Shown here: in pieces, positions 36,265 through 37,362 of the stretch | Position numbering within the stretch: the first letter of the stretch is position 1 | Layout: every line of letters begins with the position of its first letter | Assembly: GCA_964457855.1 (NCBI GenBank) | Contig: CAYWEO010000004.1 | Coordinates: 4,127 to 68,126 of the forward strand | DNA: 64,000 nucleotides | Direction: 5' to 3' | Origin: an uncultured Opitutales bacterium | GTDB taxonomy: Bacteria; Verrucomicrobiota; Verrucomicrobiia; Opitutales; CAYWEO01 | Translations under genes and position numbers: made by a program | Notes under the pieces: model-generated | What the model was told of the DNA's origin: nothing | The model's input: only the letters and a program-made list of their open reading frames with translations | Database searches by the model: none

Positions 36265-37362
36265 ATGAACTATCTCAATAGAGTCAACACCTACGTCGTT
36301 GGCTTGCTCTGTTTTTTTTCTTACGAGCAGGCTATTGGCTGGGAAAGCTTTTGCTGCTTTGTTGAGCCACAATCTGTTCCCAATGAAGTTCAAAAAATTC
36401 ATAAGGACCTGCAAAAAGATTTAAGCAAGCTAAGCTGCATTTTACCATCTGGTAGTCACGTGGTAGCGGCTTTGTCTTGTTCAGGTGAAATAGTCAATTT
36501 GCCTTATTGCTTTTTAAGTGGTGCTTGTGAAGATAAAGAACTGGTAGAAAATCAGTACAAAAAATATGGCTATGAATGTTATCCAAACGTACGAACGGCT
36601 AAAGAAATGCTTGAACATGCAGAGAAATTTTTTGCACCAAAATGCGCCGTAGAAGATAATTTTGGGATAAGGTGTGGAAATTTTTCGGCATGGGCAGATT
36701 TAAAAAATCACATAGAGTTCGATATCGAAGAAATGCAGCGTGTAGCTAAATTGGGGAAGAATGTTTATGCTAAGGATATCGATGACTCAGTCAAAGCCTC
36801 CATAGACCTTTTGGCTTACTACAATCGCCTAAAGGGAAACTATTGGCATTCGGAACAGCAATTAATTGAGTATTTAAATAAATTTGATGAAAATAAAAAG
36901 AAAACAAAATTAGAGGTTGCTATCGACAAACTAGAATTGAAAGTAGGCGAGAAAAAACTACTTACCTTGCACATACATACGAGTCTCTCCACTTGTCATC
37001 ACTGCGGCCCATCTCTAGTGAATGCAAAAAATATTTTCAACACAATGCTGACTGAGAAAAACATCAATGCAGAAATTACGCAGGTCGTGATTTCCTTCGA
37101 TGAGGTATATGTGCCCCAAAAAGAACGCTTACAAAAACAAAATGATGACAATAAAAAGCGGAAAATAAACTTTGAGATAAAAGAAGGATCAAAGCTAGAA
37201 AATCAGCCAAACGTCCCCTATTGGAATTGGAAGCAAGCAGTCCCCCCCTACGTACCGATGTTCCAGTTGCTTCCGAAAGATATGAGCAATAAAAACGAAA
37301 ATACGATAGAAAATAAGGAAATTGAGATCAAAAAAGATCAAAACCAGGATCAAAAAAAGTAG
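36265..37362 (+). CDS. Putative deaminase-fold (HxE...CxxC zinc site) protein; candidate toxin or effector
   Basis: YWHSEQQLIEYL (HSE at nt 36847-36855) followed 46 aa later by LTLHIHTSLSTCHHCGPSL (CxxC at nt 36994-37005). Hydrophobic N-terminus and a K/N/E/Q low-complexity tail. Function is inferred from the motif only. Confidence 0.35.
   Translation: MNYLNRVNTYVVGLLCFFSYEQAIGWESFCCFVEPQSVPNEVQKIHKDLQKDLSKLSCILPSGSHVVAALSCSGEIVNLPYCFLSGACEDKELVENQYKKYGYECYPNVRTAKEMLEHAEKFFAPKCAVEDNFGIRCGNFSAWADLKNHIEFDIEEMQRVAKLGKNVYAKDIDDSVKASIDLLAYYNRLKGNYWHSEQQLIEYLNKFDENKKKTKLEVAIDKLELKVGEKKLLTLHIHTSLSTCHHCGPSLVNAKNIFNTMLTEKNINAEITQVVISFDEVYVPQKERLQKQNDDNKKRKINFEIKEGSKLENQPNVPYWNWKQAVPPYVPMFQLLPKDMSNKNENTIENKEIEIKKDQNQDQKK

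Follow-up and report, generated by a model that had tools for sequence, protein, structure and literature searches.

Introduction

Among the described systems closest to the gene reported here are two clades of toxin deaminases, OTT_1508 and XOO_2897. We analysed a 64,000-nucleotide stretch of DNA (hereafter the window) from an uncultured Opitutales bacterium (contig CAYWEO010000004.1) and found in it a gene whose product, termed P0001, carries an H-x-E motif followed by a C-x-x-C motif. The C-terminal half of P0001 can tentatively be read as a far-diverged domain with the deaminase-like fold, which would make the protein a secreted zinc enzyme. In the OTT_1508 clade, a GxxK motif precedes the CxxC, and an elongated loop from strand-4 to helix-4 carries a polar residue, usually His, and an aromatic-x-x-P motif (Iyer et al., 2011, PMC3239186, Table 1). 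The delivery routes described for this clade are type VII secretion systems (T7SS), Photorhabdus virulence cassettes (PVC) and type VI secretion systems (T6SS), and the clade is included among the deaminase toxins that occur without immunity genes in host-associated bacteria (PMC3239186). For the XOO_2897 clade, delivery by a type II secretion system (T2SS) or signal peptide is known (PMC3239186), a Cys lies just before strand-1 in a subset of its members (PMC3239186, Table 1), and members of the clade deaminated cytidine in single-stranded DNA (ssDNA) in base-editor assays (bioRxiv 10.1101/2023.05.21.541555). Elsewhere in the deaminase fold, an insert in dCMP deaminase binds Zn via two Cys and one His (PMC3239186, Table 1), and the JAB proteins bind their zinc through an HxH with which strand-3 ends (PMC3239186).

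Results

Conserved His, Glu and Cys residues in a two-member family

The open reading frame (ORF) at 36265-37362 is a real, constrained gene, and the known family consists of two members, P0001 and P0002, among the billions of proteins searched. P0002 (351 aa, 41% identity) was the sole homologue recovered by phmmer from 1.84 billion cluster representatives. A word-indexed search of 5.8 billion proteins with the full P0001 sequence gave no relative beyond P0002, and a search with the domain profile added none. GTDB species genomes, JGI metagenomes and IMG/VR, when scanned with back-translated motifs, yielded zero relatives, as did tblastn against plasmids and phages, and the degenerate DNA pattern W-H-[SA]-E-x-Q-L...CxxCGP returned from metagenomes five chance matches only, which contained stops or lay in unrelated frames. 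The gene for P0002 was found on L001, a Logan contig of 2,982 bp assembled from run SRR12261223. This same run (L003) and SRR12261224 (L002) also hold contigs that match the window at 99.9-100% identity, and therefore a second, divergent copy of the gene co-occurs with the organism of the window.

The three longest runs of identity between P0001 and P0002 are WHSEQQLIE (residues 194-202), EKKLLTLHIHTS (229-240) and CGPSLVNAK (247-255). The H195-S-E197 and C244-x-x-C247 motifs fall within these runs, and the two motifs are therefore the most constrained part of the protein. Residues are numbered here from the ATG at 36265; an in-frame TTG at 36226 is an alternative start, which gives a product of 378 aa (P0004, NCBI protein) and adds 13 to each number (H208, E210, C257, C260). 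A preliminary description of the window, which counted from the TTG, had located the ORF, HSE (nucleotides 36847-36855) and CHHC (36994-37005) exactly. The dipeptide enclosed by the Cys pair is HH in P0001 and IR in P0002 (C-I-R-C). H118, H236 and H238 are likewise invariant. Among the 390 ORFs in the DNA examined that encode 150 aa or more, 5 contain the bare pattern H.E-x(20-60)-C..C (at most 1.3%, with the family itself counted), and up to three of these five ORFs are copies of the P0001 family.

The context of the two motifs was assessed in AlphaFold2 models built from the two-sequence alignment. These models are unusable as folds (mean pLDDT 34.3 at full length, and 37.6 when residues 60-345 were modelled; pLDDT is the predicted local distance difference test score), and a Foldseek search of both against the PDB gave nothing at E<=0.001, with generic beta-alpha-beta matches only. 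The one part of the models to attain pLDDT 50-70 is a local unit of a short helix (197-204), a strand (231-239), helices (241-264) and a second strand (269-278), and around the two motifs pLDDT is about 40-70. Within this low-confidence unit, HSE directly precedes helix 197-204, as the [H/C]-x-E of deaminases does at the N-terminus of helix-2, and the invariant Cys pair follows strand 231-239 at the start of helix 241-252, as the deaminase C-x-x-C does. As modelled, an HxE at a helix start followed by a strand and a Cys pair at the next helix start matches the deaminase zinc site of PMC3239186, and the context proposed in the preliminary description was thereby seen, with its motifs invariant in P0002. 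Hydrophobic candidates for strands occur, in order, at residues 65-70, 76-84, 232-238, 271-278 and 330-336. Candidate helices are found at 40-51, at HSE, at CxxC and at 286-298, such that helix 40-51 and the two first hydrophobic segments could supply helix-1 and the strand-1/strand-2 hairpin of a deaminase, whose sheet has the order 2-1-3-4(-5), with about 110 helical residues between them and HSE.

Shortening of a variable insert and matches to deaminase families

Conservation within the domain is lowest over the 22-25 residues that lead from the HSE helix to the LLTLHIH strand, and we therefore scanned constructs in which this insert was shortened. Each construct consisted of real P0001 or P0002 sequence from which 13-22 residues of the insert had been removed, leaving an E-to-C spacing of about 25-36. 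All six real-sequence constructs matched OTT_1508_deam (PF14441) at 14.7-18.1 bits (E 0.0026-0.03; P0001 constructs 0.017-0.03, P0002 constructs 0.0026-0.021). XOO_2897-deam (PF14440) was matched by four constructs, two per homologue (E 0.02-0.095, 13.3-15.4 bits), and Toxin-deaminase by a single P0001 construct (E 0.086). OTT_1508_deam and XOO_2897-deam were the only Pfam families that the constructs of both homologues had in common. When the sequence was shuffled with H, E, C and C held in place, 0/9 shuffles (five global, four segment-wise) matched a deaminase family, and the deaminase matches were also lost in H/E/C/C-to-Ala mutants and in over-shortened constructs. We regard these matches as modest, family-specific support for a deaminase domain, not as its demonstration.

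A number of results weigh against this assignment. For the constructs, the scores of 13-18 bits lie below the Pfam cutoffs of 27-29.6, the choice of deletion was itself guided by the hypothesis, and the shuffled sequences reached unrelated families at E 0.0088-0.026, which equals the E-values of the constructs. Noise at this level is frequent with queries as short as these. In NCBIfam, one construct gave an unrelated match at E 0.0025 and the constructs matched no deaminase, and the insert-deleted profile found no deaminase in the PDB. For the natural sequences, no deaminase was found at E<=10 when full P0001 and P0002 and their sub-domains were searched against Pfam, NCBIfam, PADLOC and PHROGs, nor when full-length and domain alignments were used in sequence and profile searches of the PDB. 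The enzymes that the preliminary description had named for comparison (TadA, APOBEC and DddA-like) brought no support, with hhalign scores at background against TadA, APOBEC3A and DddA/TOD6. The three-dimensional arrangement of the ligands has no usable model (pLDDT 34 and 38; no Foldseek match at E<=0.001). Locally, C244 is preceded by T rather than P and C247 is followed by G-P, and the candidate hairpin does not align to the XOO_2897 profile. Five potential ligands are invariant (H195, H236, H238, C244 and C247), which is more than a catalytic zinc needs, and a role in disulfide or redox chemistry would also suit the many Cys and an export to an oxidising compartment.

The spacing was also compared with that of known deaminases. 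In a PROSITE-type deaminase pattern, the HxE helix signature is separated from the PC by 17-33 residues, and longer spacers occur in ADAR/Tad1 deaminases. P0001 has 46 residues separating E197 from C244 and P0002 has 49, which places the family outside the canonical range, as the preliminary description had recognised. Even with the insert removed, neither OTT_1508_deam (best 18.1 bits) nor XOO_2897-deam (best 15.4 bits) reached its gathering score of 27 bits, and under the threshold that each family sets, P0001 belongs to no Pfam deaminase family.

The same observations bear on an alternative that we consider as likely as a deaminase-like domain, namely a fold that is new or has escaped recognition. 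Its conserved His and Cys would then form a structural metal or disulfide site in an exported, Cys-rich and possibly non-enzymatic protein, possibly a surface or host-interaction factor that is paired with its exported partner (described below), and the likeness to deaminases would be coincidental. The family has two members only, which match none of about 88,000 profiles and no PDB entry significantly, AlphaFold yields no fold, and every weak match falls within the range reached by shuffled sequences. Moreover, H236-x-H238 and C244-x-x-C247 could make a self-contained four-ligand site, and the signal peptide is accompanied by seven further invariant Cys. However, this alternative leaves the invariant W-H-S-E-Q-Q-L-I-E block unexplained, and the deaminase specificity of the weak matches shared by both homologues, absent from all nine shuffles, would have to be a coincidence.

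As a separate observation, residues 236-247 read H-x-H-x5-C-x-x-C-G with all four potential ligands invariant, and P0001, though not P0002, gave recurrent weak matches to Zn_ribbon_PriA. This segment could constitute a metal site that is independent of H195.

Comparison with the OTT_1508, XOO_2897 and JAB families

The preliminary description had likened the motif to OTT_1508-type deaminases. This likeness finds some support, in that OTT_1508_deam scores highest among the deaminase models for either homologue when the insert is shortened; the natural sequences do not match the model. As judged from the family model and description, P0001 shares with OTT_1508-like proteins an H-[AS]-E...L-[LI] helix, then a strand and a CxxC. 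The GxxK of the clade may have a counterpart in G228-E-K-K231, which lies before the strand leading to the CxxC in P0001; P0002 has N-E-K-T-T-K, and the G is not conserved. The aromatic-x-x-P after strand-4 may correspond to YELP in P0002, whereas the aromatic residue is shifted by one in P0001 (V-Y-V-P), and neither protein has a conserved His in the strand-4/helix-4 loop. The P0001 family differs further in its extra 22-residue insert between helix-2 and strand-3, its plain signal peptide, its additional invariant HxH and its Cys-rich N-terminal half.

XOO_2897-deam is the second deaminase model matched by both homologues. The resemblance to this clade extends to an aromatic residue after strand-4, to delivery by a signal peptide, and to a Cys before strand-1, for which C58 of P0001 may be compared. 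In contrast to XOO_2897-like proteins, the P0001 family has no Glu in the strand-3/helix-3 loop (TSLST or TSIPT), its matches are confined to engineered constructs at sub-threshold scores, and its hairpin is left unaligned. H118, C127 and C137 of P0001 may likewise be compared with the two Cys and one His of the dCMP deaminase insert. In the P0001 family, as in the JAB/MPN metalloenzymes, the strand before the metal-binding helix ends in an HxH, which is invariant and occupies the position of the JAB zinc ligands (PMC3239186); unlike these enzymes, the family has a CxxC in place of S-x-x-D in the next helix, carries its Glu in a helix and not in strand-1, and gives no Pfam JAB match.

SIR2-like and thioredoxin-like alternatives

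A competing signal was obtained for sirtuins, by which the protein would contain a degenerate SIR2-like domain, with H236 as the catalytic His and C244-x-x-C247 as the first zinc knuckle, and would act as an NADase or ADP-ribosyltransferase effector or persist as an inactive relic. We judge this improbable. The natural P0001 sequence matches Pfam PF02146 with an E-value of 0.017 for the full protein and 0.0028 for the domain, and weakly matches an NCBIfam deacylase and HST2 in the PDB. The match is collinear over about 70-110 residues and follows the gap-free pattern I-D-x-L-x4-G-x-K-K-h-h-x-L-H-x7-C-x-x-C, then VVxF(G/D)E..P, so that the I-D, the L-H, the VVxFxE-like strand and the first CxxC at identical spacing all find counterparts. 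In hhalign, the natural two-sequence domain alignment scored 26.9 against Sir2Tm (P 0.0012) and 30.2 against an alignment of four sirtuins (P 3.6e-4, probability 37%), whereas shuffled Sir2Tm scored 12-13.5 +/- 2-2.4 with a maximum of 20.1.

These scores are offset by controls and by the residues themselves. Of 74 unrelated ORFs put through this hhalign comparison, one had a score of 26.2, CobB was at background, and Af2 and SIRT3 reached only about 19. P0001 alone matches PF02146, at best with 18.1 bits against a gathering score of 24, P0002 is unmatched, the PDB sirtuin matches vanish when the two-sequence profile is used, and no PADLOC SIR2 model matches. The Gly-rich NAD loop is missing, with ALSCS or VFSCQ in place of GAGxS, and the QNxD pocket reads VAID or TVID, in which the Asp alone is kept. 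There is one CxxC only, without the second knuckle. The segment aligned to the GTS strand, the strand-5 equivalent, is deleted in P0002, and the invariant WHSEQQLIE is placed inconsistently between alignments. The region after the CxxC is predicted to be an amphipathic helix, which fits helix-3 of a deaminase and not the zinc ribbon of a sirtuin.

The local strand-CxxC-helix-strand unit, Sec export and the Cys-rich region would also suit a periplasmic thiol-disulfide oxidoreductase of the thioredoxin/glutaredoxin type, in which C244-x-x-C247 would be the redox-active pair; a conserved V-P (P331) before a hydrophobic strand resembles the cis-Pro strand, and two constructs matched Thioredoxin_3 (E 0.13-0.15). 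This is highly unlikely in view of the controls, because a shuffled sequence matched Thioredoxin_3 better than the real ones (E 0.0088) and hhalign scores against E. coli thioredoxin and Grx3 were at background (12-16). No hydrophobic strand-4 follows the putative cis-Pro strand (MFQLL), the dipeptide within the CxxC varies between the homologues (HH vs IR), and the surroundings of the CxxC do not fit the thioredoxin and glutaredoxin signatures. Here too, the invariant HSE block would be left without an explanation.

Four further candidates were rejected by inspection of the sequence alone. These were an ADP-ribosyltransferase R-S-E, for which the conserved Arg and the ExE are missing; a HIT triad, as there are only two His; the H/E/C of a Clan CE protease, whose motif context is wrong; and the CxDxR...HxxC of a beta-carbonic anhydrase, the first motif of which is absent.

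Taken together, the deaminase assignment of the preliminary description is partly supported. It is favoured by the conservation of the motifs and by the insert-shortened matches, and is disfavoured by natural sequences that match no deaminase, by sub-threshold construct scores and by the competing SIR2 signal.

Layout of the protein and predicted export

The positions of the features in the gene and its surroundings are given in Table 1.

Table 1. Features of the gene and of the surrounding region, in nucleotides of the window.
Feature	Position	Strand	Basis
tRNA-Leu(CAA), directly upstream of the island of low guanine-plus-cytosine (GC) content	35300..35386	+	ARAGORN
Low-GC island, 36-40% GC, carrying the two-gene cassette	35387..37400	.	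Composition profile, repeat search, Pfam on flanks
Partner gene, 243 aa (239 aa from ATG 35503), one N-terminal hydrophobic signal-like segment	35491..36222	+	
Main ORF (P0001), ATG 36265, stop 37360-37362, 365 aa	36265..37362	+	ORF listing and translation
Signal-like segment, Sec-type, residues 1-25 (MNYLNR / VNTYVVGLLCFFSY / EQA)	36265..36339	+	Sequence reading and hydropathy
Cys-rich region, residues 30-137	36352..36675	+	Alignment and Cys positions
Candidate strand-1/strand-2 hairpin, residues 64-85	36454-36519	+	Inference only
Invariant WHSEQQLIE, residues 194-202, with H195-x-E197; candidate helix-2 zinc ligand and proton shuttle	36844..36870	+	Alignment; predicted helix 197-204
Poorly conserved insert, residues 205-226, from HSE helix to next strand	36877..36942	+	Alignment
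Invariant EKKLLTLHIHTS, residues 229-240; predicted beta-strand ending in H236-x-H238	36949..36984	+	Alignment; AlphaFold
C244-x-x-C247 followed by invariant GPSLVNAK; start of predicted amphipathic helix; candidate helix-3 Cys pair	36994..37029	+	Alignment; AlphaFold
Predicted strand EITQVVISFD, residues 270-279, candidate strand-4, followed by Y-x-(x)-P	37072..37101	+	Alignment; AlphaFold
K/E/N/Q/D-rich tail, residues 285-365	37117..37359	+	Alignment and composition

The layout expected from the preliminary description, with a hydrophobic signal-like N-terminus, a Cys-rich N-terminal half and a low-complexity tail, was borne out by hydropathy and composition. The N-terminal hydrophobic segment of P0001, VNTYVVGLLCFFS, comes after a short region in which R6 is the single basic residue, and ahead of E-Q-A; its counterpart in P0002 is MSK / FFITTLYCLLLPFV / QLGA. 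Beyond this single segment, the hydropathy profile of P0001 contains no further stretch resembling a transmembrane (TM) segment. Nine of the 11 Cys of mature P0001 lie within residues 30-137, and seven in the N-terminal region are invariant between the homologues (30, 58, 72, 82, 88, 127 and 137). AlphaFold modelled no strands in the candidate hairpin region, where pLDDT is below 50. The tail consists to 59% of K, E, N, Q and D, compared with 34% in the remainder of P0001, and holds a K-K-R-K and a conserved PPYxPMFxLxP; 12 residues are deleted there in P0002.

The K-K-R-K (residues 297-300, nucleotides 37153-37164) lies after the predicted strand-4 and reads K-K-Q-K in P0002. It resembles a monopartite nuclear localisation signal, a likeness that would matter only if the protein enters a eukaryotic cell.

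A conserved two-gene cassette

The P0001 gene is the second of two co-directional genes, separated from the first by 3-42 nt depending on the start chosen. In the window, the pair is placed after tRNA-Leu(CAA), between a murC/murB fusion gene and ligA, which flank the island with about 50% GC. The only homologue of the partner, at 39% identity, lies directly upstream of P0002 on L001, where the pair has 37-42% GC and is placed after an M16 peptidase gene of 45-49% GC; the window holds no homologue of this M16 gene. The cassette is thus conserved in two different genomic neighbourhoods with a GC content below that of its flanks. Since the pair is conserved, low in GC and surrounded by different neighbours on L001, we conclude that it is a conserved and probably horizontally acquired two-gene cassette. 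No att-like repeats and no repeat of the tRNA 3' end were found flanking the island, and promoter or terminator signals did not exceed the expectation from shuffled sequence. The second copy of the cassette (on L001, compared with positions 35393-37458 of the window; ~40% protein identity) is either a paralogue in the same genome or belongs to a co-occurring relative or neighbour.

An upstream leucine-rich repeat (LRR) gene had been described at the position of the partner. The gene is real, but its LRR nature is unconfirmed: Pfam found no significant domain and no LRR match in the partner, and the homologue on L001 matches LRR_6 at E 0.15 only, by which an RNI-type LRR is merely hinted at. 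The further suggestion that the LRR protein plays an immunity role is unsupported and probably wrong, as the partner is exported and no LRR model is significant. Hydropathy and alignment give a single Sec-type hydrophobic N-terminal segment in both cassette proteins and in both homologues. The partner was also considered as a lipoprotein, which was rejected since the Cys is not conserved.

The type III secretion system and other genes of the window

A type III secretion system (T3SS) had been noted nearby as a possible route for P0001. The system itself is present, with SctV at 26035-28143 (-), the SctC secretin at 15360-17381 (-) and a tetratricopeptide repeat (TPR) chaperone-like gene at 20107-20673, but the link to an effector is unsupported. 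The P0001 gene lies about 8 kb from sctV, with cell-division genes between them and within its own low-GC insert. A type III effector would have no cleavable Sec signal and would be linked to a chaperone or to a T3SS operon, neither of which describes P0001. Export of the cassette proteins by the T3SS is unlikely because both carry Sec-type N-termini, and the nearby T3SS is accordingly an unlikely route for P0001, as far as its sequence allows a prediction.

The closest SctV sequences are from metagenome-assembled genomes (MAGs) of Puniceicoccales (68%) and Chthoniobacterales (64%). By this single gene, the organism is probably a verrucomicrobium. The secretin and SctV together are most like those of Puniceicoccales, Chthoniobacterales and Lentisphaeria MAGs (SctV 59-68%), with Chlamydiota lower (~50%), which suggests a T3SS of the type found in the Planctomycetes-Verrucomicrobia-Chlamydiae group outside the chlamydiae. 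A 1,603-aa ORF at 20720-25531 (-) has no Pfam match at E<=1e-5; since it sits between the chaperone-like gene and sctV, it may be a T3SS substrate or translocator.

The fusion gene beside the cassette is a 782-aa ORF at 32832-35180 (-), in which MurC, with three Mur ligase domains, is joined to MurB (FAD_binding_4 and MurB_C). Downstream on the same strand are FtsQ-like (31863-32789) and FtsA-like (30617-31765) genes. Between 39594 and 41003 (+), near a tRNA-Lys (41071-41145), three small ORFs (92-108 aa) begin with signal-like segments that are nearly the same, MKKCLLSALFVVAACALNA, MKKCVLSALFVVAACSLHA and MKKYLLLTPCIVAFCALKA. They end in acidic or Pro-rich tails, one of which has a (PV)7 repeat, and the GC content falls to 40-42% in part of this region. 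By their sequences, the three may form a small family of secreted proteins.

Discussion

If the C-terminal half of P0001 does adopt a deaminase-like fold, E197 would activate a zinc-bound water for the hydrolytic deamination of a base in a nucleic acid or nucleotide. The core would begin with helix 40-51 and the hairpin at about 65-84, followed by a helical insert of about 110 residues bearing Cys and His, by helix-2 with HSE and by the 22-residue insert. It would continue with strand-3 (LLTLHIH), helix-3 (CxxC) and strand-4 (ITQVVISF), and close with one more helix and the strand YVPMFQLL. Export would be by Sec and not by the T3SS, and the protein would act outside its producer on a host or competitor. 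Its exported partner could serve as a chaperone, inhibitor or adaptor in the periplasm or outside the cell, rather than as a cytoplasmic immunity protein. The substrate, the target organism and the role of the partner are here a matter of pure inference.

A more far-reaching proposal, which we consider unlikely, is that P0001 and P0002 are the first members of a clade, so far unrecognised, of enzymes that have the deaminase-like fold and are exported by Sec. Such a clade would combine deaminase ligands (HxE on helix-2, CxxC on helix-3) with a JAB-type HxH, at the end of strand-3, in its metal centre, and possess a large Cys/His helical insert and a small co-inherited exported partner. With it, a host-associated verrucomicrobium would edit or damage nucleic acids, or nucleotides, in its host or in a competitor, and the enzyme might have an unusual substrate or sequence specificity that would be of interest for base editing.

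If the protein is not a deaminase, the case shows how easily HxE...CxxC motifs mislead, and the gene pair is an orphan, probably horizontally acquired secreted cassette. If the deaminase-like reading is true, the gene would encode a secreted nucleic-acid-editing enzyme that is invisible to current family models, from the Verrucomicrobiota, a phylum that Iyer et al. (2011, PMC3239186) do not name for either the OTT_1508 or the XOO_2897 clade, and with an odd ligand set and large inserts. Divergent toxin deaminases have been a source of new base editors, among them DddA and the SCP1.201 and XOO_2897 clades (bioRxiv 10.1101/2023.05.21.541555). Such divergent deaminases also inform how symbionts manipulate their hosts.

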